Below, one piece after another: positions 4,739 through 48,753 of a stretch of DNA of 64,000 nt. This DNA comes from Eubacteriales bacterium (GTDB lineage: Bacteria; Bacillota; Clostridia; Oscillospirales; CAG-382). The stretch covers positions 10-64,009 of the forward strand of contig JAZQKV010000049.1 in the NCBI GenBank assembly GCA_045542335.1, written 5' to 3'. Within the stretch, counting starts at the first letter, position 1, and each line of letters starts with the position of its first letter. Both the position numbers and the translations under genes were made by a program. Below the pieces are notes generated by a model. The model was not told where the DNA came from, made no database searches, and worked only from the letters and a program-made list of their open reading frames with translations.

Positions 4739-7336
4739 ATGAAGAATATTATGAAAAAAACATTTTTCCATGTGACAATGGTTGTGATGCTTTTAGTTGT
4801 TATGGTGGCGAATGTCAAGGCGGCACAGTCTGACAGCTATTTTGAAGAATCAAGCTATTTTAAAGTGGCAAGCGGATATGCTCTTGCCTGGTCTGAGGTA
4901 TATGATGAAGCGGGATATGGTGAATTAGTGACAGGTGTCGCTCCGGGCACGACCGCAGGACAGGTGTGCGACAATGCCTTGTTCTCTTACGGTCTGAAAG
5001 TGGGAATAGTTGATGAAACGACTGATGAATATGGAGAGGCTGTTCTTAAAGTGCTTGAGGAAACAGACAGGGTTTATACAGGGTGTCTGCTTGTCACATA
5101 TGAAGAAGATTATGAAGAGGACATATACGATCCGTATCTTTGGGTTAACGCATACATCATTATTGTAGACGGTGATGCCGACGGAGACGGTGACAGAGAT
5201 GCAGATGACATGAAGCTTGGTGTTGAAATGATGCTTGAAGGCAGACGTGCCGATGAATACTCTGCCGCATTCGATAAGAATCTTGACGGAGAAATTACTC
5301 TTGCTGAATTGAGATGTCAGACTGTTGAAGCCTTTGACGAAAACAGCGATGCTCCCGATGAGGTGTCTCCTTTCGCAGACAGCTTTGCTTTTGTGCTTGA
5401 GGATGAGGCAACGTATGTCTCCATGGTTGAAAACGGAAAGGCTGTGATAAAAAGTTATCTGACGGTTTATCTTGACGGCAAAGCTAAAGATGTACCCGTG
5501 AAAAAGATAACTGAGGATATGGTTTCTGACCCTGAATGGGAGGGCTTTCTCGTAAACTATGATGAGGAATACGAGGAATTTGATTTTAGTGAGTATGTGG
5601 GAAAGCTCGCTGTTGCTTATAACGATGACGAGGGTTATTACTTTAAACTTCTTTCCGAAAGTGACTATAATGACAGCTCTGTTCTTGAGGGGGACGATGC
5701 TGAGAGTGCGTATATGTATACTTCGGAGGAAGTTTGGCTTTCGTTTGATGATGTTACAAAACGCATTACCCTTTCAGATACGGCAGAGGCGGGATTTGTG
5801 AGCCTTGCTGTCAAGGACTATTCGCAGATTGTGCTGACGGGTTATGATGCGGAAGATGAGTGGATTTGCCTGAGCTATACCGGGGATGAAATCTATAAAA
5901 TTGCCGAGGAAACAGAGCTTTACTATGCTGTTGTTATGGTGCAGAACAATCCCGGCGTGACAAAAATGGAAAACCTTGTGATGCTTTATGGTGAAGCGTG
6001 GGACGAATTGCCCTCCGAGGCTTTGGATTTCAGACCTGTTCCTGCTTCGGCAAGCTTCAGCCAGGATGAGAACTGGGGTATGGTGCTTGACAGTCAGGTG
6101 ACAGAATATGCAATTAAAGAGGATGATATAATTGTCAATAGAGATCTTTTGACTATCATTGAGGACGGAAAAACTACCTATGTTCCTGTCAAGAAGATTA
6201 CTCAGTTTATGGTTGACTATGAATCTAAATGGAAGGGATATATCCCATGCTACGATGAAGATTATTATGAATATGATTTCTCGGAATATGTGGGCAAGCC
6301 GGCAGTGGCACAGAAAGACCATAAGGGAAGATATATTTTCAGAACTCTTGAAATAGAAGATTATAATGATGGCGATGTTCTTTTATATGACGAGAGTGAC
6401 ATTGGAAACAGTGAAGGTGCTATCTTTGCATTTACAGCAGAGAATGTTGCTCTTATAAAGAAGGTTGGTTATAGCTACATCATTACCTCCGACGGTGAAA
6501 GTGAATACTCCGACAGTTTTACATATGGTGAGAATAACGAAACAACATTTAAACAATTAACTGTTAAGGACTATACAAAGATTATTATAAAGAGCGTTGA
6601 TGCCGAGGGAGAACCTGTTATAAGCGCATATGATTATGAAAATCTCCCTGATTTTGCTCATGATTTTTACTTTGACAAAGTGACTGTGGTTGTGGGTAAC
6701 AATTCAAAGACCATGAGAAACGAAAACCTCAGCTTTTTCTACGGAGAAACAGACAGAGAAATTGAAATTTATCCGGGAAAAATTACGGGATTTGCAATCG
6801 TCAACAGCTATGAAATCGATCCAACCGACAGCGGAAACGTATATTATGTAAGTGCTTATGACACAAAAACGGGCAATATCGGAACATATGAAGCCTTTTA
6901 CGGATACGAAATGCTTCTTGAACAGGGAGAGCTTCTTGGCATAACCTCAAAGGGCTATATAATGGATGATTACAGCTTTGGCTCGATATTGGAACAAGGC
7001 GAGCCGGATCTTGACATATACGATTTTGATGATAAAGTTGGAAACCTCGGCTGGTGCGAGCTTGCGGCATATGATGCCGAAGCGAAAATTATAGAACTTA
7101 AAGACGACAGCAATTGTTACTATGTTGACGATAAAACCGTTTTTGTTGAATATGACATTTCAGATGCCTGGTCAGCACTCAGGAGTGATTTAATTCTTAC
7201 CTCAAATGCAGCAAAAAACAATTTTGACGGAAAAACCGGATCATTCAAAGCTGTGTATGTGACGGCAAATGAACTTGAAACATCCCCGAACGAGGGACTT
7301 TTCACCGCTGTTTCGGTTATTCTTGTACACAAATAA
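4739..7336 (+). CDS. Secreted, very acidic D/E/Y-rich protein with an N-proximal dockerin-like EF-hand pair and a ~230-aa internal tandem duplication
   Basis: The start was moved to the ATG at 4739 (SD GAAGGTGG 7 nt upstream). Signal peptide: MKNIMKKTFFHVTMVVMLLVVMVANVKA/AQ. DGDADGDGDRDADD...FDKNLDGEITLAELR (nt 5165-5314) resembles the two calcium loops of a dockerin. No enzyme motif was recognised. Confidence 0.75.
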   Translation: MKNIMKKTFFHVTMVVMLLVVMVANVKAAQSDSYFEESSYFKVASGYALAWSEVYDEAGYGELVTGVAPGTTAGQVCDNALFSYGLKVGIVDETTDEYGEAVLKVLEETDRVYTGCLLVTYEEDYEEDIYDPYLWVNAYIIIVDGDADGDGDRDADDMKLGVEMMLEGRRADEYSAAFDKNLDGEITLAELRCQTVEAFDENSDAPDEVSPFADSFAFVLEDEATYVSMVENGKAVIKSYLTVYLDGKAKDVPVKKITEDMVSDPEWEGFLVNYDEEYEEFDFSEYVGKLAVAYNDDEGYYFKLLSESDYNDSSVLEGDDAESAYMYTSEEVWLSFDDVTKRITLSDTAEAGFVSLAVKDYSQIVLTGYDAEDEWICLSYTGDEIYKIAEETELYYAVVMVQNNPGVTKMENLVMLYGEAWDELPSEALDFRPVPASASFSQDENWGMVLDSQVTEYAIKEDDIIVNRDLLTIIEDGKTTYVPVKKITQFMVDYESKWKGYIPCYDEDYYEYDFSEYVGKPAVAQKDHKGRYIFRTLEIEDYNDGDVLLYDESDIGNSEGAIFAFTAENVALIKKVGYSYIITSDGESEYSDSFTYGENNETTFKQLTVKDYTKIIIKSVDAEGEPVISAYDYENLPDFAHDFYFDKVTVVVGNNSKTMRNENLSFFYGETDREIEIYPGKITGFAIVNSYEIDPTDSGNVYYVSAYDTKTGNIGTYEAFYGYEMLLEQGELLGITSKGYIMDDYSFGSILEQGEPDLDIYDFDDKVGNLGWCELAAYDAEAKIIELKDDSNCYYVDDKTVFVEYDISDAWSALRSDLILTSNAAKNNFDGKTGSFKAVYVTANELETSPNEGLFTAVSVILVHK
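5375..6754 (+). repeat. Intragenic tandem duplication (two ~230-aa modules) inside the 4739-7336 gene
   Basis: The two modules align with an offset of 230 aa. Module 1: YLTVYLDGKAKDVPVKKITEDMVSDPEWEGFLVNYDEEYEEFDFSEYVGKLAVA. Module 2: LLTIIEDGKTTYVPVKKITQFMVDYESKWKGYIPCYDEDYYEYDFSEYVGKPAVA. The similarity continues through ...KDYSQIVLTGYDAEDE versus ...KDYTKIIIKSVDAEGE. Confidence 0.75.
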
Positions 7337-30606: not shown

Positions 30607-30691
30607 GCGGCTGTGGCGGAACTGGCAGACGCGCACGTTTGAGGGGCGTGTGGATCACTCCGTATGGGTTCAAGTCCCATCAGCCGCACCA
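30607..30691 (+). tRNA. tRNA-Leu (anticodon GAG), type II with a long variable arm and an encoded CCA
   Basis: Folded by hand. Acceptor stem GCGGCTG/CAGCCGC. Three-bp D stem with a GG loop. Anticodon stem CACGT/GCGTG with the loop TT-GAG-GG. Variable arm of 13 nt (GGA/TCC stem). T arm ATGGG-TTCAAGT-CCCAT. Discriminator A followed by CCA. Confidence 0.95.
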
Positions 30692-38252: not shown

Positions 38253-38260
38253 ATGGGGCG

Positions 38261-38479
38261 TTATTCGTCCGTTTCTTCCTTGTCTTTTTGATATACAAGG
38301 ATGTCTTCGACTTTGCAATCGAGGATATTGCACAGGTCGTTAAGAGTAACGGTTGTTATGGGTTTATTGTGTTTTAGTCTGTCGAGCAGGCTTCTGCTGA
38401 GGTTATAGGTATTGATGAGCTTATAGGTTGACACGCCTTTTTGTTTCATTGTTTCGTAAAGGGGTTCGTATGAAATCAT
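38261..38479 (-). CDS. XRE/Cro-C1 family helix-turn-helix transcriptional regulator (YozG-like, 72 aa)
   Basis: MISYEPLYETMKQKGVSTYKLINTYNLSRSLLDRLKHNKPITTVTLNDLCNILDCKVEDILVY is a typical short HTH_26-type sequence. The SD GGAGG lies upstream. Confidence 0.85.
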   Translation of the reverse strand: MISYEPLYETMKQKGVSTYKLINTYNLSRSLLDRLKHNKPITTVTLNDLCNILDCKVEDILVYQKDKEETDE

Positions 38480-38520
38480 TTTTAAATTCCTCCGAGATGT
38501 AAATTATCTTTGATAATTTT

Positions 38521-38549
38521 ATTATAATTTATACTCGGTGTCTTGACAA
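38521..38549 (-). promoter_or_regulatory. Sigma-A promoter for the XRE regulator gene
   Basis: The minus strand reads TTGTCA (complement of 38544-38549), a 17-nt spacer, then TATAAT (complement of 38521-38526). Confidence 0.7.
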
Positions 38550-38571
38550 TTGTCGATATATAGAGTATAAT
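38543..38571 (+). promoter_or_regulatory. Consensus sigma-A promoter (upstream promoter P1 of the 38925 operon), divergent from and overlapping the XRE promoter
   Basis: TTGACA (38543-38548), a 17-nt spacer, then TATAAT (38566-38571). Both -35 boxes lie inside the perfect palindrome GACAATTGTC (38545-38554). Confidence 0.75.
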
Positions 38572-38662
38572 GCTTTTGTGAATAGATTTTTTTGGGAGGA
38601 AAAAGTTTTGAAAAGGAAAATCTGACTGCATTTTTTTATTTTTCAAAAGTGTCAATAAGCTC

Positions 38663-38691
38663 TTGACAAATATGGCAATATGTGTTAAAAT
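38663..38691 (+). promoter_or_regulatory. Sigma-A promoter P2 that drives the structured leader RNA
   Basis: TTGACA (38663-38668), a 17-nt spacer with a TG extension (38683-38684), then TAAAAT (38686-38691). The predicted start site is near 38698. Confidence 0.75.
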
Positions 38692-38697
38692 GATTAT

Positions 38698-38856
38698 GCC
38701 AAACAAACTGAATATATGGAAAAGTGGGTATATTTCCTTATCTATAGGAATATAATACCTTTTTCTGTCATGCTGTTTTACAGAATTTGATAAAATGCGG
38801 ATTCCGTATAGAAGCAGTATGATTATATACCCAATTCTGTATACAGTTTGTTTGGC
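38698..38856 (+). ncRNA. Unclassified structured cis-regulatory RNA (riboswitch-like aptamer candidate, ~159 nt)
   Basis: A 13-bp perfect closing helix pairs GCCAAACAAACTG (38698-38710) with CAGTTTGTTTGGC (38844-38856). Nested helices are TGGGTATAT (38725-38733)/ATATACCCA (38825-38833) and CATGCTG (38769-38775)/CAGTATG (38815-38821, one G-U). A local hairpin spans 38734-38750. The element is followed by a terminator and an SD. Confidence 0.55.
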
Positions 38857-38879
38857 GACGACTGGAATTCGTGTTTTTG

Positions 38880-38907
38880 TGCGCTGATTTCGGTCGGCGC
38901 ATTTTTT
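38880..38907 (+). terminator. Intrinsic terminator inside the 5' leader (expression-platform candidate)
   Basis: TGCGCTGA (38880-38887) pairs with TCGGCGCA (38894-38901) across a TTTCGG loop, with one G-U pair, followed by TTTTTT (38902-38907). It lies 7 nt upstream of the SD AGGAGG (38914-38919). Confidence 0.7.
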
Positions 38908-38924
38908 ATTTTTAGGAGGTATTT

Positions 38925-39575
38925 ATGGCTTCAAGTTACACAACCCACAATCTATCACCCGAATGCAAAGCTTTCGTTGTAAAAAAAGTGTATGAACACT
39001 ACAACATGAATATTTTTTGGATGGGAGTATGTCAGAAATTTTCCACGATGTGCGTATTCATCTTCCCTGTTATTACACTATTTTCAAATGAGAATTCGAC
39101 ATTAAAAATAACAATTGCAATTCTTTCTGCTTTAATTTCTCTAATCGTAAGTTTCTTTTGCGACACAACGGAATACACTTTGACTTTGCATATTGTACTT
39201 GACGCCTTTAAAACAGACTGCAACGACAGTTCTTTTGAAGCGAAATTCCAAGCTCTGATACCGTATATTCGAGAAATAGACTTTGCAAGGGGACGAAGTG
39301 ATTTCAAGGCATATTGTGAAGAATTAGATATTCAAATCAAACAATGTGATATGTTAACAAATCATGACAAAAGTGAAATGAACCGTCAACGATATATTAT
39401 TGCGGTATTATGTAGCATGGCTACAATTATTTGCTTGCTATTATTGTATTTGGTACAAGAATTGGACATAATATCTGTAATAATTCTGTGTTTTATCACT
39501 GCATCAACATTTATTGGTTTTATATTTATGCTGATTGATTGTATTTCGTTTTCAAGAAAAAATAGTAAAAAGTGA
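38925..39575 (+). CDS. Hypothetical 4-TM membrane protein (two TM hairpins flanking an ~85-aa soluble domain)
   Basis: 216 aa with a strong SD (AGGAGG, 5 nt spacing). TM hairpins lie at about aa 38-78 and 167-213. The gene is AT-rich and I recognised no family. Confidence 0.7.
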   Translation: MASSYTTHNLSPECKAFVVKKVYEHYNMNIFWMGVCQKFSTMCVFIFPVITLFSNENSTLKITIAILSALISLIVSFFCDTTEYTLTLHIVLDAFKTDCNDSSFEAKFQALIPYIREIDFARGRSDFKAYCEELDIQIKQCDMLTNHDKSEMNRQRYIIAVLCSMATIICLLLLYLVQELDIISVIILCFITASTFIGFIFMLIDCISFSRKNSKK

Positions 39576-39587
39576 GGAGAATCTATC

Positions 39588-42203
39588 ATGTCAAATAAAG
39601 TTATTTCTGTTGCGTTATGCTTTGTAATGCTGTTCTCACTATGTTCAATAACTGTGTCCGCCGCTTCTACATATTATTATTTGTATAACGTAAGTAATGT
39701 ATCTGCCAATTCGAGTAATACCGAAAGCAATTTTTCAAAGTACTGGGAATATTGGTCACAGGGGGGATCCATGTATTCAGGAATGCGAGATTATGGTTGC
39801 AGAGTTGTTGCACAGTCAAAGCTTTTGGTTGAATGCGGTGCTGCTTCTTCAAATGTTGATATTTTTAACCCTGACGTGTATTTTGAATGGGCTAACACTA
39901 CAAAATATTTTGAATATTTTGACACAGGCAGTATGTATGAGCAAACACAGTATGGTGGTTCAGGTGCCGCAGCTGTTGAATTTGCCAATAGTAATGGAAT
40001 AAACTTAAAAAAAGAAGGTTCGGTTGCATTGTCAGGAACTAACAGTGTTGAAGACGCAGAGTTAGTAATGGAATATATCAATGCTGGTTATTATATAATC
40101 CTTTCTTGCACTGCTCATCAAGCCTATGTTGGTCGTGAAGCTTCATTAAATGCAGGAACACCAATAGTTTTGAATTCATGGACTGGGTATTCTTATAGAA
40201 ATAAGAATAACATATATTTAAACAACTATAACGATTCATATTCAACAAGTAAGTATACAGCTTTTATATATTTTTCAAGTGACAATACTCCCATAATTTC
40301 TCCCGACGGCTACCTCTACAAAAGCCTTGATAATGACACAAGCAATCCGTCATTTCCCGGAAAATGGATAAGAGAATCAGATTCTACCGGAAGTGAATTG
40401 ATTGGTAGTATCCCATATGGTGAATATGCCGTTGTTACAAAATATAATTCCGGAAGAAAATGGGCGTATGTGAACTATAAAGGTGTTGAGGGATGGACTA
40501 TGCTCGATGAAGAGCTTTTCCCCTACCAAGGTTTGTACACCTGTCCTATAGTGACATTCAACTCAAATGGTGGAAGTGTTTCGACAAGTGATAAAAAGGT
40601 TTATATAAATACGCCATATGGCACACTTCCCACTCCAACACGAACAGGTTATACCTTCGACGGCTGGTATACCTCGGCAAGTGGAGGAACACTGGTTACC
40701 GCTTCAACAAATGTTACGTTGACAGGAAATCAAATGCTTTATGCTCATTGGAATCAAAGTTATTATACAGTATCGTATGATGCCAATGGTGGCAGTGGTG
40801 CACCGGAGAGCCAAACAGGTACAGCTGGAAGTTTCATATTCATTAGTGGTACAATTCCGGAAAGATTTCTGTACAATTTTTGTGGGTGGTATGGTGATTA
40901 CTGGGATGCGAGTACATACTATTCACCAGGTGATGAATATTATGGTGATAACATAACATTGTATGCACTTTGGGAAGCACCACAATCATACATAGCTTGT
41001 GGTGTAGAAAAGAATTCTTATTATGTACCATATCCTAGCCAAAAACGTTACTATTTGATAGAACCAACTTATGATGGTAAATATGTATTTGAATCCAAGG
41101 GCTCTTACGATACTGTTGCAAGGCTTTACGATTCTGGGGGCAACCTTTTAGCCTCGAATGATGATGGCGGAGATAATTATAATTTCAAGCTTGAATATGA
41201 CAGTTTTGAAGCTGATAAAACATATTATCTTCAGTATTGGTTTTACGATACAACTCTTAAAGGAAGTTTTTCTGTTGAAAGCTACAAACCGTATGTTATA
41301 AGTTATGATGCAAATGGAGGAACAGGAGTACCTGAAAATCAAACAAAAAAGCATAGAGTAGATGTAACACTTAGTACCGTAATACCTGTAAAAACGGGCT
41401 ACACCTTCAAGGGATGGTCAACAAGCAGTACGGGAAATGTTGTTTATGCAGCAGGTGCAACTTATTCGGCAAATTCAGATGTTACACTTTATGCCGTTTG
41501 GGATGAGCACATTCCCGGCGTCCCTACTTTAAACATAAATAAAACAAATGCATATAACAATGAAGCAATTACGTTTACGTGGAATGATGTTCAATATCGA
41601 GATTACTTCGAGTTTTTTATTGTTAATGCTGATACCGATGAAAGATTATATGTGGATTGGAACGTCTACGATACAACGTATACTTATACCGTAACAACAC
41701 CCGGAAACTATTATGCCTACATAGCTGCAATAAATGATGACCTCAGGGACGGCGGTCATTACTTCACCCATGGCAATCGTGTATATTTCACGATTTATGA
41801 CCGACCTACATATACCATTACATATGATGCCAACGGCGGAACAGGTGTGCCTGCAAGTCAAACCAAGTCATATGATATTGATTTAACGCTTTCTGCTATA
41901 GAGCCAATAAGAGATGGATATATATTCAAAGGTTGGGCAACAAGCAAATCGGGAAGTGTTGTTTATACCCCGGGAGAAATCTACACAACAAACAGCGAAA
42001 TAACGTTATATGCTTGTTGGACACTTTGTGGAGATATATACAACGACGGAAAAATTGACATACAAGATATGAAGTCTCTCGCTGCTTTTTTATCAAACGA
42101 GCAAGCTTCAATTCATGCGCTTGCTTCCGACCTCAATGCCGACGGCAAAATAACCCTGCATGACCTACGCATTCTATTTAAAAAGCTTGCATCAGGAGAA
42201 TGA
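39588..42203 (+). CDS. Secreted multidomain protein: papain-fold Cys-peptidase-like domain, SH3b, four Listeria-Bacteroides (Flg_new) repeats, a PPC-like domain and a C-terminal type I dockerin
   Basis: Signal peptide MSNKVISVALCFVMLFSLCSITVSA/AS. WSQGG...YGCRVVAQSKLL...SCTAHQAYVG shows a Gln/Cys/His order. YGEYAVVTKYNSGRKWAYVNYKGVEGWT is SH3b-like. Repeats include VTFNSNGGS...TGYTFDGWY and Y(D/V)ANGG(S/T)G.P...GY.FKGW. The dockerin is GDIYNDGKIDIQD...SDLNADGKITLHD (nt 42030-42200). Confidence 0.8.
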   Translation: MSNKVISVALCFVMLFSLCSITVSAASTYYYLYNVSNVSANSSNTESNFSKYWEYWSQGGSMYSGMRDYGCRVVAQSKLLVECGAASSNVDIFNPDVYFEWANTTKYFEYFDTGSMYEQTQYGGSGAAAVEFANSNGINLKKEGSVALSGTNSVEDAELVMEYINAGYYIILSCTAHQAYVGREASLNAGTPIVLNSWTGYSYRNKNNIYLNNYNDSYSTSKYTAFIYFSSDNTPIISPDGYLYKSLDNDTSNPSFPGKWIRESDSTGSELIGSIPYGEYAVVTKYNSGRKWAYVNYKGVEGWTMLDEELFPYQGLYTCPIVTFNSNGGSVSTSDKKVYINTPYGTLPTPTRTGYTFDGWYTSASGGTLVTASTNVTLTGNQMLYAHWNQSYYTVSYDANGGSGAPESQTGTAGSFIFISGTIPERFLYNFCGWYGDYWDASTYYSPGDEYYGDNITLYALWEAPQSYIACGVEKNSYYVPYPSQKRYYLIEPTYDGKYVFESKGSYDTVARLYDSGGNLLASNDDGGDNYNFKLEYDSFEADKTYYLQYWFYDTTLKGSFSVESYKPYVISYDANGGTGVPENQTKKHRVDVTLSTVIPVKTGYTFKGWSTSSTGNVVYAAGATYSANSDVTLYAVWDEHIPGVPTLNINKTNAYNNEAITFTWNDVQYRDYFEFFIVNADTDERLYVDWNVYDTTYTYTVTTPGNYYAYIAAINDDLRDGGHYFTHGNRVYFTIYDRPTYTITYDANGGTGVPASQTKSYDIDLTLSAIEPIRDGYIFKGWATSKSGSVVYTPGEIYTTNSEITLYACWTLCGDIYNDGKIDIQDMKSLAAFLSNEQASIHALASDLNADGKITLHDLRILFKKLASGE

Positions 42204-46785: not shown

Positions 46786-46833
46786 CGCTTTAGTTAGTTA
46801 AAGTCCGGAGGTTTTCCGTCGGACAAAAATAAA

Positions 46834-47145
46834 TGCGTTGAGCGAAAAGAAGTAACCTCGAAACGTCATTTTCAGAGAGCCGTCGGTTGGTGAAAGGCGG
46901 TAGTGACCTTGCGGTGAATACATTTCGTAAGCAGCACACCAAACGGCATTGTTTCGTGATCGGAAACGCAGATGCCCAGTAGGCTGTGACGGGTTCGTCC
47001 GTTATAACGATAAAGTATAAATGAGACAGTTGCAAATGTCTTTGAGTACTTGATGAGGCCGATTTCCGTGAGGGAACGGTAAAACTGAGGTGGTACAGCG
47101 ATTTATTCGCCCTCTGATTTTAATCAATCGGAGGGTGTTTTTTAT
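46834..47145 (+). promoter_or_regulatory. T-box riboswitch (tRNA-sensing transcription attenuator), probable Tyr (UAC) specifier
   Basis: Stem I has a GA/K-turn region (TGCGTTGAGCGAAA), AGTA (46851-46854), an AG bulge AGAGAG (46874-46879) and a distal loop GGTTGGTGAAAGG. The specifier loop reads GAA-TAC-A (codon at 46919-46921) just before TTTCG, which pairs with CGAAA (46843-46847). There is an F-box CCGTTA and the T-box sequence AAACTGAGGTGGTACAGCG (47082-47100). The terminator pairs CGCCCTCTGATT with AATCGGAGGGTG (47108-47137), followed by TTTTTT. Confidence 0.85.
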
Positions 47146-47184: not shown

Positions 47185-48753
47185 ATGGCATTCACGATTA
47201 TTCTAATGGTTGTTTTCTTTGCGGCAATGATAGGTGTTGGACTTTACTGCCGTAAACATTCCACAGACGTAAACGGTTTCGTTCTTGGCGGACGTTCCGT
47301 TGGCCCTTGGCTCACAGCTTTTGCTTATGGTACGTCATATTTTTCTGCGGTTATTTTTGTTGGTTACGCAGGACAGTTCGGATGGAACTTTGGTATGGCT
47401 TCGACCTGGATAGGTCTTGGAAATGCGTTTATAGGCTCGCTTCTCCCGTGGGTGATTCTCGGCAGAAGAACAAGGGTTATGACACAGCATCTTGAAAGTA
47501 AAACAATGCCCGATTTCTTCGGAAAGAGATATGATTCAGAGGGACTTAAAATTGCGGCATCGTTTATAGTTTTCATCTTCCTTATTCCTTACACCGCTTC
47601 GCTTTACAACGGTCTTTCAAGTCTTTTCAGCATTGCATTTGACCTTCCTTATTGGGTTGTAATTGTTGTTATGGCGGCTCTCACTTGTTTGTATGTGATT
47701 TTCGGCGGATATATGGCAACGGCAATCAACGATTTTATTCAGGGAATTATAATGCTTGTGGGAATTGTTGCTGTAATTGCGGCTGTGATTGTTGATAACG
47801 GCGGCTTTATGGCGGCTTATAACGGACTTGCGGTTATCCCAAACGAAACAATGACCGGAGCGTATGCTTCTTTCCTCGGCCCGAACCCCGAATTCCTTTT
47901 CTTTGTTGTTATGCTTACATCTCTTGGTACATGGGGTCTTCCTCAGATGGTTGGAAAATTCTATTCCATCAAAAACGAGGAAGCTATTAAGAAAGGCACA
48001 ATAATTTCCACTGTGTTTGCGATAATTGTTGCAGGCGGATGCTATTTCCTTGGTGGCTTCGGAAGACTTTATGCTGATGTTGTTAAGGTGACTGAAAGTG
48101 GCTCTGTTCTTTTTGATAGCATTGTTCCCTCTATGCTTGCGGCTCTGAACAACGAAATTATCGTTGGTATTGTTATGGTTCTTGTCCTTGCGGCATCTAT
48201 GTCAACCCTTTCTTCTCTTGTTCTCACTTCAAGCTCAACCCTTACGCTTGACTTTATTGCGACAAAAGTGAATAAGAATATGAGCGAAAAAACAAAGCTT
48301 TTCACTTTGCGTGCATTTATCGTTTTCTTTGTTGCCATTTCCGCAGTTATTGCAATTCTTAAGGATGCATTCCCCGGATTTACGTTTATTGCGCAGATGA
48401 TGGGTGTTTCGTGGGGAGCACTTGCAGGTGCATTTCTTGCTCCTTTCCTCTATGGTCTTTACTCCAAGAAGATTTCAAAGGCGGCTGTTGCAGTTTGCTT
48501 TGTATACGGTACTGTGGTTGAGATTGTTCAGCTCGCAATTACAATGGGATGGCTCACCGTTGACGGCGGCGTGCTTGGATTTGTGTTCAAAAACTCGCTC
48601 TACTCAGGTGTGTTTGCGATGTTAGGCGGACTTATCCTCGTTCCTGTTGTGAGCCTTATCACACCTAAGCTTTCCAAAGAAAAGGTTGAACCCATGTTTG
48701 AATGTTACAACAAGGATGTTGTTGTACCCTTTAAGGATTCTCTTGGAAAATAA
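47185..48753 (+). CDS. Sodium:solute symporter family (SSF) transporter, T-box controlled
   Basis: 522-aa polytopic protein. The N-terminal region FVLGGRSVGPWLTAFAYGTSYFSAVIFVGYAG is typical of SSF proteins. The SD AAAGGA lies upstream. Confidence 0.8.
   Translation: MAFTIILMVVFFAAMIGVGLYCRKHSTDVNGFVLGGRSVGPWLTAFAYGTSYFSAVIFVGYAGQFGWNFGMASTWIGLGNAFIGSLLPWVILGRRTRVMTQHLESKTMPDFFGKRYDSEGLKIAASFIVFIFLIPYTASLYNGLSSLFSIAFDLPYWVVIVVMAALTCLYVIFGGYMATAINDFIQGIIMLVGIVAVIAAVIVDNGGFMAAYNGLAVIPNETMTGAYASFLGPNPEFLFFVVMLTSLGTWGLPQMVGKFYSIKNEEAIKKGTIISTVFAIIVAGGCYFLGGFGRLYADVVKVTESGSVLFDSIVPSMLAALNNEIIVGIVMVLVLAASMSTLSSLVLTSSSTLTLDFIATKVNKNMSEKTKLFTLRAFIVFFVAISAVIAILKDAFPGFTFIAQMMGVSWGALAGAFLAPFLYGLYSKKISKAAVAVCFVYGTVVEIVQLAITMGWLTVDGGVLGFVFKNSLYSGVFAMLGGLILVPVVSLITPKLSKEKVEPMFECYNKDVVVPFKDSLGK

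Follow-up and report, generated by a model that had tools for sequence, protein, structure and literature searches.

Several described systems control gene expression after transcription has begun, by means of the 5' leader. Three-state transcription attenuators of the Bacillus pyr operon/PyrR type and OFF-type terminator riboswitches have a leader with a terminator, an overlapping antiterminator and a third upstream pairing that removes the 5' arm of the antiterminator, with the sensor domain lying 5' of the platform. In the cwpV and flgB switches of Clostridioides difficile a segment flanked by inverted repeats between promoter and gene is inverted, and control is exerted after initiation through termination (PMC2784873). 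The phage P4 CI and P1-P7 c4 immunity RNAs are structured RNAs made from a leader, and they carry a segment complementary to sequences in the same transcript, a pairing that promotes premature termination or blocks expression. Comparative genomics has further yielded orphan structured leader motifs, such as the Rfam 'Cis-reg' candidates of Weinberg et al., for which no ligand is known. Here we compare with these systems a leader in a 64,000-nt stretch of an Eubacteriales bacterium (GCA_045542335.1, contig JAZQKV010000049.1, positions 10 to 64,009; hereafter the window, in which all coordinates are given). It is a strongly folded leader RNA of a previously uncatalogued family found in gut and rumen Clostridia and their prophages, and it appears to switch downstream accessory genes on or off by choosing between a terminator, an antiterminator and a long-range pairing.

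A sequence-only reading had described positions 38663-38924 as a riboswitch-like leader that could not be assigned to any known class. This observation holds, as all the sequence features it described are present. Promoter P2 (TTGACA-17-TAAAAT with a TG extension, 38663-38691 on the plus strand) scores 11/12, and its -10 box ends 6 nt before the first base of the closing helix, which places the predicted transcription start near 38698. The closing helix is a perfect 13-bp pairing of 38698-38710 (GCCAAACAAACTG) with 38844-38856 (CAGTTTGTTTGGC). The nested helices 38725-38733/38825-38833 (9 bp) and 38769-38775/38815-38821 both appear in the MFE fold, the latter inside a longer 15-bp helix. An intrinsic terminator (stem 38879-38888/38893-38902, 10 bp, loop UUCG) is followed by a U-run at 38903-38913, which abuts the Shine-Dalgarno sequence AGGAGG (38914-38919) and the ATG at 38925-38927. 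This leaves no room for another promoter, so the downstream genes need read-through. The fold is far better than chance, with an MFE of -82.9 kcal/mol for 38698-38924 against -46.5 +/- 4.7 for shuffles (z = -7.7, 0/200).

Three details needed correction. The segment AATTCTG, proposed as an alternative partner of CAGAATT and placed at 38834-38840, lies at 38833-38839. The local hairpin at 38734-38750 is predicted for this sequence alone, while relatives instead conserve a small hairpin corresponding to 38746-38748/38758-38760. Finally, the proposed antiterminator, in which 38855-38862 pairs 7/8 with 38893-38900, is only the outer tip of a larger one (38859-38869/38886-38896 plus 38871-38874/38881-38884) of -18.9 kcal/mol, which is complete before the terminator 3' arm is transcribed.

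No Rfam 15 family matches the leader. A window-wide scan at gathering thresholds found only a T-box at 46829 and a tRNA, and a permissive scan (E <= 10) of the 481-nt stretch 38480-38960 against the 4227 models gave best hits of 16-20 bits against cut-offs of 45-70. Initial searches for homologues also gave nothing. Blastn-short found no second copy in the window, blastn of the leader against plasmid and phage collections returned no hit, and 19-20-mers of the window sequence in IMG/VR gave none or only chance hits. The exact inverted-repeat pattern had two unrelated hits in JGI metagenomes, one intergenic and high-GC (locus L014) and one a palindrome inside mutL (L015). The leader looked like an orphan until we searched protein databases with the translation of its minus strand, which retrieved mis-called ORFs from metagenomes (39 hits, about 25 of them covering the leader). 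These led to real DNA homologues, namely the loci L034/L035 and seven IMG/VR phage contigs (among L036-L043), while about 25 further members are known only by back-translation, with a third of their bases undetermined. A last pattern scan of IMG/VR added only chance or unrelated matches. In L034, L036, L039 and L040 no Rfam hit fell on the leader. Only five clearly distinct types of real DNA are represented.

The homologues show the same topology in independent MFE folds (z = -7.5 for L034). They share a rod of 150-161 nt with a three-way junction, an apical hairpin GAAUUUG-AUAAAAUG-CRRAUUC, and an intrinsic terminator with an overlapping antiterminator. The -10 box sits 6 nt before the first G of the closing helix in every type for which the upstream sequence was read (the window, L034, L036, L040 and L039). 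The sense strand folds better than the antisense strand in every member, with -60.2 against -47.1 kcal/mol and 8 against 1 G-U pairs in the window, and a gap of 11-16 kcal/mol and 4-8 against 0-2 G-U pairs in relatives. Across 8 distinct sequences 99.1% of cells are paired, against 33-48% in slid registers, 9 pairs are changed on both sides, and 0/500 shuffles reach the observed covariation score.

The individual helices differ in how they are supported. The closing helix P1 (5' strand GCCAAACAAACUG) has 98% of cells paired across the 8 sequences, with 4 pairs changed on both sides. The inner helices P2 (38713-38721/38835-38843) and P3 (38725-38733/38825-38833) have counterparts at the same places with different sequences in relatives, e.g., UGCGCAAAC/GUUUGCGCA in L036 versus UGCACAAAC/GUUUGUGCA in L040. 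The junction hairpin P4 (AGG-loop-CCU, 38746-38748/38758-38760) and the U-rich single strand behind it (38761-38766) are conserved as GGG(G)-A/U loop-CCC(U)UUUU in all relatives, and P4 is 100% paired with one pair changed on both sides. The long hairpin P5 (38767-38823) comprises P5a (38767-38781 with 38806-38807 and 38811-38823) and the apical stem P5b (38783-38789/38798-38804) with the loop AUAAAAUG (38790-38797). P5b is 100% paired in 8 sequences with 3 one-sided changes, and the loop is invariant in the real DNAs. As P2, P3 and P5a could not be put into a reliable alignment, their conservation rests on the independent MFE folds. The terminator is 98.8% paired with 3 pairs changed on both sides, its loop being UUCG or UACG in every member, and the antiterminator is 90.8% paired in relatives with 2 pairs changed on both sides. 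There is also a three-way covariation between the terminator 5' arm, the terminator 3' arm and the antiterminator arm, which reads G/C/G here and U/A/U in L036.

A feature that the sequence-only reading did not see is a potential pseudoknot. The apical loop plus the 3' strand of P5b (38792-38806, AAAAUGCGGAUUCCG) is complementary, 15 of 15, to 38863-38877 (UGGAAUUCGUGUUUU) in all 8 sequences (120/120 cells). The second arm lies 6 nt after the closing helix and overlaps the antiterminator 5' arm, so that the pairing would sequester it. One pair is changed on both sides (G-C here, A-U elsewhere) and 5 on one side. In 25 back-translated members this pairing gives 213 certain pairs and 2 certain mismatches, whereas slid registers give 81-167 certain mismatches. 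However, nine of the 15 pairs never vary, so most of the support is conserved complementarity rather than covariation, and on the window sequence alone the duplex was only marginally unusual (p about 0.03-0.045). The duplex has -16.1 kcal/mol in the window and -10.8 to -18.3 kcal/mol overall, against -2 to -4 for the apical hairpin. The terminator and antiterminator states lie 0.8-1.9 kcal/mol apart in the window, L034 and L039, and 5.0 apart in the L036/L040/L043 group.

The genes behind the leader differ between members, being a prophage lipoprotein, a small charged protein and, in the window, a two-gene cassette. Its first gene (38925-39575, plus strand) encodes a 216-aa protein with hydrophobic segments, 4 TM according to the sequence-only reading, and its second (39588-42203, plus strand) an 871-aa secreted protein with an N-terminal domain, an SH3-like domain, four Listeria-Bacteroides repeats and a C-terminal dockerin. 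Sequence searches gave no function for the 216-aa protein (Pfam, NCBIfam, PHROGs), the N-terminal domain of the 871-aa protein (Pfam, NCBIfam, PDB) or a 123-aa protein of L034 (Pfam, PHROGs), and back-translation downstream of the leader was too ambiguous to identify the commonest controlled gene. The earlier remark that this is an unusual regulon for a metabolite sensor holds and extends, as the controlled genes differ between members and are accessory or prophage cargo. Only 8 relatives of the 216-aa protein were found, and these carry recombinase-driven invertible promoters or a short plain upstream region, never this leader. Upstream, back-to-back promoters with a palindromic operator (38521-38571; promoter P1 at 38543-38571 on the plus strand, the promoter of the HTH gene at 38549-38521 on the minus strand) provide a second predicted entry point that feeds the leader. 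The divergently transcribed gene (38261-38479, minus strand) encodes a 72-aa HTH_26 (Cro/C1-type) regulator (E = 4e-14) with more than 3000 relatives. The bidirectional promoter/operator is about 88% conserved next to HTH_26 relatives, but the homology ends right after the -10 box, at about 38575, and these relatives lack the leader.

We interpret the region, with moderate confidence, as one member of a family of cis-acting leader RNAs that control transcription termination in front of accessory genes. In this model, transcription starts at G38698 and the first 159 nt fold into the rod, after which the next 50 nt can adopt one of three mutually exclusive pairings. These are the terminator with its UNCG loop, the antiterminator, which uses the terminator loop and 3' arm and is finished before the terminator can form, and the 15-bp pseudoknot, which takes away the antiterminator 5' arm so that the terminator can form. 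Pseudoknot formation would then mean termination, while an apical hairpin that is kept closed, or a loop that is occupied, would mean antitermination and read-through into the 4-TM and dockerin-protein genes. All the evidence is computational. Our sequence comparisons establish the family, its architecture, and the conservation and covariation of P1, P4, P5b, the terminator, the antiterminator and the pseudoknot complementarity. That the pseudoknot forms and acts as an anti-antiterminator is an inference from computation alone, as is the notion that some signal acting on the rod, i.e., a small ligand, a protein or the terminated leader acting in trans, sets the balance. Such a 15-bp loop-to-tail helix would also require the long hairpin to fold back along the rod.

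The interpretation offered by the sequence-only reading was therefore partly supported. A structured sense-strand leader with a terminator/antiterminator platform is supported, and none of the three sequence-based outcomes that had been set to refute it occurred, as there is no Rfam hit, homologues exist, and their substitutions keep the helices. The proposed switch, in which the closing helix competes with the antiterminator, is not supported, as the two overlap by only 2 nt and in constrained folds the antiterminator forms whether or not the closing helix is blocked. The conserved competitor is instead the predicted apical loop-tail pairing, and coupling of the platform to the rod through this pairing is supported by conserved complementarity. 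No trans partner for the antiterminator arm was found within the window. Coding explanations were also rejected. The 24-aa and 30-aa sense ORFs have no Shine-Dalgarno sequence, the ORF from the loop AUG is open in all types but in two different frames at the tail and is not significant, and the 146-codon minus-strand open frame has no start codon for 72 codons, no Pfam hit, and is read in different frames in relatives.

What kind of signal, if any, acts on the rod is less certain. A small-molecule or second-messenger riboswitch, in which the rod is an aptamer and ligand binding stabilises or prevents the pseudoknot, is a special case of our model, and remains possible but unproven. It would fit a conserved, covarying domain directly followed by a terminator/antiterminator platform in front of unrelated genes in different genomes, and pseudoknot-gated expression platforms are usual in riboswitches. 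In its boldest form, which we regard as tentative, this would be a new riboswitch class with a three-way-junction aptamer whose ligand-dependent fold-back brings the apical loop onto the tail, switching off an antiterminator, and which, spread by prophage morons and genomic islands of gut and rumen Clostridia, ties the expression of surface, secreted and superinfection-type proteins to a metabolite or second messenger. However, about 73% of rod nucleotides are paired, and no conserved unpaired junction core is visible among the five types, a small sample. The invariant unpaired stretches are the apical loop and the tail, both explained by the pseudoknot, and the controlled genes point to no metabolite. 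The conserved parts, i.e., helices, apical loop and tail, fit protein- or RNA-mediated control equally well. For a protein-dependent attenuator (PyrR/TRAP/LicT-like), the three mutually exclusive structures ending in an intrinsic terminator are in place as predicted pairings, but no RAT, PyrR binding loop or GAG/UAG repeats were seen by eye, and the neighbouring HTH_26 protein has a DNA-binding fold.

Other explanations are less likely. The unit has its own promoter and a strong terminator that is the MFE state in most relatives, so that it could terminate constitutively and act mainly as a stable small RNA of about 205 nt, with leak-through into the downstream gene. Several members sit as morons next to terminase genes in phage contigs, and the 15-nt self-complementary segments resemble the seqA/B/C logic of phage P4 immunity, in which case the apical loop could pair in trans with the tail of nascent copies or with other targets. 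Nevertheless, the conserved antiterminator with changes on both sides, and downstream genes with a ribosome-binding site directly after the U-run and no promoter of their own, argue for regulated read-through. A passive role, merely as a 5'-terminal stabilising hairpin with a leftover terminator and no switching, is very unlikely. A long, nearly fully paired rod starting at +1 is an arrangement that protects Firmicute mRNAs from 5' decay, but promoter, rod, tail and terminator are conserved as one oriented unit in front of genes, covariation and strand asymmetry indicate selection on the RNA, and the antiterminator and pseudoknot complementarity are conserved. A MITE-like insertion is equally poorly supported, as the flanks (ATTAT and GACGA) show no target-site duplication and there is no second copy in the window or in about 234 kb of retrieved loci apart from true homologues. 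A DNA inversion switch was considered because relatives of the controlled cassette are driven by invertible promoters with an adjacent tyrosine recombinase, seen in both orientations, and because the geometry (promoter, 13-bp perfect inverted repeat, 133 bp, inverted repeat, 68 bp, ATG) resembles that of cwpV, with 21-bp repeats, 195 bp, 57 bp to the ATG and the promoter outside (PMC2784873). We reject it, since phmmer searches with the integrases of loci L002/L013 and with Hin found no tyrosine or serine recombinase in the window (although one elsewhere in the genome cannot be excluded), in-silico inversion of 38711-38843 leaves P(antiterminator) at 0.97 in both orientations, all five homologue types have the same orientation, and the interior is itself paired with many G-U pairs that exist only on the sense strand.

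If the model holds, a new and fairly widespread family, with at least 25-30 distinct sequences in public metagenomes and phage contigs, is added to the small set of terminator-controlling leaders, and it would make a good orphan-riboswitch candidate. It travels as a promoter-plus-leader module in front of different cargo genes on prophages and islands. As relatives of the cassette use invertible promoters instead, the same surface-protein genes appear to have been placed under two quite different on/off devices. Searching protein databases with the translated non-coding strand, in order to catch mis-called ORFs, may also help with other orphan non-coding regions.

Compared with the described systems, the leader resembles the orphan motifs of Weinberg et al. 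in being a conserved, covarying 5' UTR structure with an intrinsic terminator, found mostly in uncultured gut and rumen Firmicutes and phage contigs, but it differs in matching none of the Rfam 15 models. Like the P4 CI and c4 RNAs it is carried on phages and contains a segment complementary to its own transcript. However, it has no sequence or Rfam similarity to them (the c4 family is in Rfam and did not match), and the controlled genes are morons or island cargo rather than lytic-cycle regulators. With cwpV and flgB it shares an upstream promoter and an inverted-repeat-flanked segment of 130-200 bp before a surface-protein gene, but here the 'inverted repeat' is an RNA helix with a paired, G-U-rich interior. 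The pyr-type attenuators and OFF-type terminator riboswitches share with it the order of sensor domain, putative here, and platform, the overlapping terminator and antiterminator, and, by inference, control of read-through into the genes. Apart from the lack of a PyrR-like binding motif or known aptamer core, the difference lies in the inferred anti-antiterminator, which here would be a 15-bp pseudoknot between the apical loop of a ~155-nt rod and the tail instead of a local hairpin, an unusual design.

All the elements described in the sequence-only reading are present, and the observation is therefore confirmed. These include a promoter with the arrangement TTGACA-17-TAAAAT and a TG extension at 38663-38691, a perfect 13-bp closing helix (38698-38710 with 38844-38856), nested helices, an intrinsic terminator (38879-38902, loop UUCG) with a U-run to 38913, AGGAGG at 38914-38919 and an ATG at 38925. 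As RNA, 38698-38924 folds at -82.9 kcal/mol compared to -46.5 +/- 4.7 for dinucleotide shuffles (z = -7.7). Two small corrections apply, as AATTCTG lies at 38833-38839 and the antiterminator proposed earlier is the tip of a larger hairpin (38859-38896, -18.9 kcal/mol), which is the MFE state and is complete before the 3' arm of the terminator is made. The rod (38698-38856) folds at -60.2 kcal/mol with 8 G-U pairs on the sense strand, while the antisense strand folds at -47.1 kcal/mol with 1 G-U pair. Such asymmetry is expected for a selected RNA structure and not for a DNA-level palindrome. An Rfam scan of the whole window at gathering thresholds returned only a T-box leader at 46829-47117 (110 bits), upstream of the ORF at 47185-48753, and a tRNA gene with a long variable arm at 30607-30688. 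A permissive scan of 38480-38960 gave only chance-level hits of 9-20 bits against cut-offs of 39.5-75.

The leader is preceded by a 72-aa HTH_26 regulator on the other strand and followed by a 216-aa protein without a Pfam family, described as having 4 TM segments in the sequence-only reading, and an 871-aa secreted protein with four Listeria-Bacteroides repeats and a dockerin. The block 38260-42200 has lower G+C than its flanks, which are an M50 peptidase gene and comEC, and all three island proteins are singleton clusters. The HTH_26 protein has more than 3000 relatives at 75-88% identity, which share the gene and a back-to-back promoter/operator (TTGACAATTGTCGATATATAGAGTATAAT) corresponding to window 38517-38575 and including the upstream promoter P1. 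However, homology stops right after the -10 box. The regulator and its promoter/operator (38261-38575) form a module conserved at about 88% DNA identity across thousands of metagenomic relatives, whereas the divergent cargo genes vary (RHS-repeat proteins, 191-aa unknowns, PNPOx-like). After P1, at 38594-38625, there is a GGGAGG Shine-Dalgarno sequence and a five-codon mini-ORF (TTG AAA AGG AAA ATC TGA) at the position where HTH_26 relatives start their cargo gene, which is probably a remnant of a displaced gene start.

The 216-aa protein has only eight relatives, and their loci (L001, L002, L006, L008-L011 and L013) do not carry this leader. Instead, these relatives of the membrane-protein plus secreted-protein cassette are driven by classical invertible promoters, in which a tyrosine recombinase gene is followed by a ~270-bp segment carrying TTGACT-17-TATAAT and an internal terminator, flanked by 24-bp perfect inverted repeats (ACAACATAATCTGCATTATGTTGT; 3686-4000 in L002 and 5680-5990 in L013). 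The segment is assembled in the ON orientation in L002 and L006 and OFF in the others. Searches of plasmid, phage, JGI metagenome and IMG/VR DNA with window-derived words found nothing related. One unrelated metagenomic contig, L015, holds a ~160-bp near-perfect palindrome (6805-6965) in frame inside a mutL ORF, reminiscent of Rickettsia-type palindromic elements, but it shares only the 14-mer CCAAACAAACTGAA with the window. At this stage the leader appeared to be an orphan.

The minus strand of the entire intergenic region (38485-38922) is open for 146 codons, a length reached by none of 2000 dinucleotide shuffles, although there is no start codon in the first 72 codons, no Pfam hit, and relatives read it in other frames. 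Since gene callers might have mis-called the same open frame elsewhere, we used its translation as a protein query. This returned two spurious metagenomic proteins, P0130 and P0131, which share KKCADRNQRTKT(Q/R)IPVVAKQT, the antisense reading of the terminator, the antiterminator and the 3' strand of the closing helix. The open minus-strand frame is the reason gene callers elsewhere produced the spurious proteins that revealed the family. The contigs encoding P0130 (L034 and L035) provided real DNA containing a TATAAT box followed six bases later by GCCAAACAAACUA ... UAGUUUGUUUGGC, the same tail and terminator, and a different downstream gene encoding a 123-aa highly charged protein. A profile of the antisense translations, searched against 1.84 billion representatives, found 39 hits, of which about 25 run through the leader. 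Scanning IMG/VR with the conserved apical hairpin and tail gave eight phage-contig loci, L036-L043, falling into three further sequence types, and Rfam has no match on the leader in L034, L036, L039 or L040 either. Among these contigs, L036 (5474-5541) and L040 (4126-4192, 7532-7584, 8563-8615 and 9141-9192) carry a DUF3800-VIII RNA and several RAGATH-5 RNAs above the Rfam thresholds. Other low-GC phage contigs (L045 6742-6827, L046 1434-1516, L048 3442-3525, L050 and L051) hold a small-RNA-like unit consisting of TGATAAAAT (-10 box), a long hairpin and a terminator whose loop reads UAGUUUGGCGACGG. This unit was found only because the search pattern forced those words, and it is probably unrelated to the family.

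Independent MFE folds of all members give the same topology, with a closing helix of 12-14 bp, inner helices, a small GGG/CCC junction hairpin followed by U-rich single strand, and a long hairpin ending in GAAUUUG-AUAAAAUG-CRRAUUC. Sense-strand energies exceed antisense energies by 11-16 kcal/mol, with 4-8 G-U pairs against 0-2. In every type for which the upstream sequence was read, the -10 hexamer ends six nucleotides before the first G of the closing helix, and the predicted 5' end of the RNA is therefore the first paired base. Pairs were counted on a MAFFT alignment of eight distinct sequences, restricted to the reliably aligned helices. Of 324 cells, 99.1% are standard pairs, compared to 33-48% when partners are slid by 1-3 columns, and no shuffle out of 500 reaches the observed covariation score. 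Nine pairs change on both sides: four in the closing helix, three in the terminator, one in the junction hairpin and one in the pseudoknot pairing described below. The antiterminator is 90.8% paired with two both-sided changes, and at one position the terminator 5' arm, terminator 3' arm and antiterminator arm change together, from G/C/G in the window to U/A/U in L036. The terminator loop is UUCG or UACG in all members. The variable helices, which were left out of the formal alignment, differ completely in sequence but stay paired in the individual folds; for example, L036 has UGCGCAAAC/GUUUGCGCA where L040 has UGCACAAAC/GUUUGUGCA. The invariant AUG in the apical loop (window 38795-38887 and the equivalent in L034, L036, L039 and L040) opens an ORF that stays open for 30-41 codons in the four types where it ends, runs in frame into the downstream gene in L034, and reaches or passes the terminator region. 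However, it reads the tail in two different frames, has no Shine-Dalgarno sequence and gives per-sequence shuffle p-values of 0.08-0.23.

The sequence-only reading proposed that the closing helix competes with the antiterminator. Our results do not support this, as the two overlap by only two nucleotides and the antiterminator still forms with any part of the rod blocked. What would instead compete with the antiterminator is a pairing that secondary-structure programs cannot show because it is a predicted pseudoknot. Arm 1 consists of the last six loop nucleotides, the 3' strand of the apical stem and two more bases (38792-38806, AAAAUGCGGAUUCCG), and it is complementary to arm 2 (38863-38877, UGGAAUUCGUGUUUU), which begins six nucleotides after the closing helix. 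All 15 pairs can form in all eight real sequences (120/120 cells). One pair changes on both sides (G38799-C38870 here, A-U elsewhere) and five change on one side, all compatible with pairing, so the support is mostly conserved complementarity rather than covariation. In 25 back-translated members the register gives 213 certain pairs and 2 certain mismatches, while slid registers give 81-167 mismatches. The duplex is worth -10.8 to -18.3 kcal/mol, compared to -2 to -4 kcal/mol for the apical hairpin it must open. Judged from helix lengths alone, folding the long hairpin back along the rod would bring the apical loop near the base of the closing helix, which makes the contact sterically plausible.

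Arm 2 covers most of the 5' arm of the antiterminator. The inferred logic is therefore that formation of the pseudoknot would prevent the antiterminator, allow the terminator to form and turn the genes off, while preventing the pseudoknot would let the antiterminator form first and give read-through. The terminator and antiterminator states lie 0.8-1.9 kcal/mol apart in the window, L034 and L039, and 5.0 kcal/mol apart in the L036/L040/L043 group. The copy in the window leans toward the antiterminator and the others toward the terminator. What the analysis shows is the family, its shared topology and the conserved pairings, on computational evidence from five real sequence types plus back-translations, whereas formation of the pseudoknot, the switching it would produce and any sensing of a signal are inferred.

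The U-run abuts the ribosome-binding site in the window and lies about 20 nt upstream of it in L034, and downstream genes therefore depend on read-through. These genes differ between members. They comprise the 4-TM plus dockerin-protein cassette here, the 123-aa charged protein in L034, whose antisense shadow recurs in many of the 39 hits, a ~345-aa lipoprotein with signal peptide ...LLLLMSGC placed just upstream of the terminase small and large subunit and portal genes in phage contigs L037, L040 and L043, and a small ORF at a prophage end in L039. The element is thus a portable promoter-plus-leader module for accessory (moron or island) genes.

The invertible promoters in relatives of the cassette raised the possibility that the 13-bp repeats in the window are a DNA inversion switch like that of cwpV, which has a similar geometry with 21-bp repeats, 195 bp between them, 57 bp to the ATG and the promoter outside (PMC2784873). 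We reject this explanation, as no tyrosine or serine recombinase is detectable in the window, in-silico inversion leaves the terminator/antiterminator balance unchanged, the interior is paired with sense-only G-U pairs, and all homologues share one orientation.

The interpretation of the leader as a riboswitch is partly supported, in that it is a real, unclassified, riboswitch-like leader, but with different switch wiring and with ligand sensing unproven. We consider the attenuator model more likely than not. The family is new, whereas the kind of mechanism it would use is already known. Within this model, a true small-molecule riboswitch is possible but unlikely on present evidence: the element has a structured domain, a pseudoknot-gated platform and varied gene contexts, but no conserved unpaired core is visible at the junction among the five types and the regulon suggests no metabolite. 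A protein factor would fit equally well, and so would an abundant terminated leader acting in trans on nascent copies, as in phage P4 immunity.
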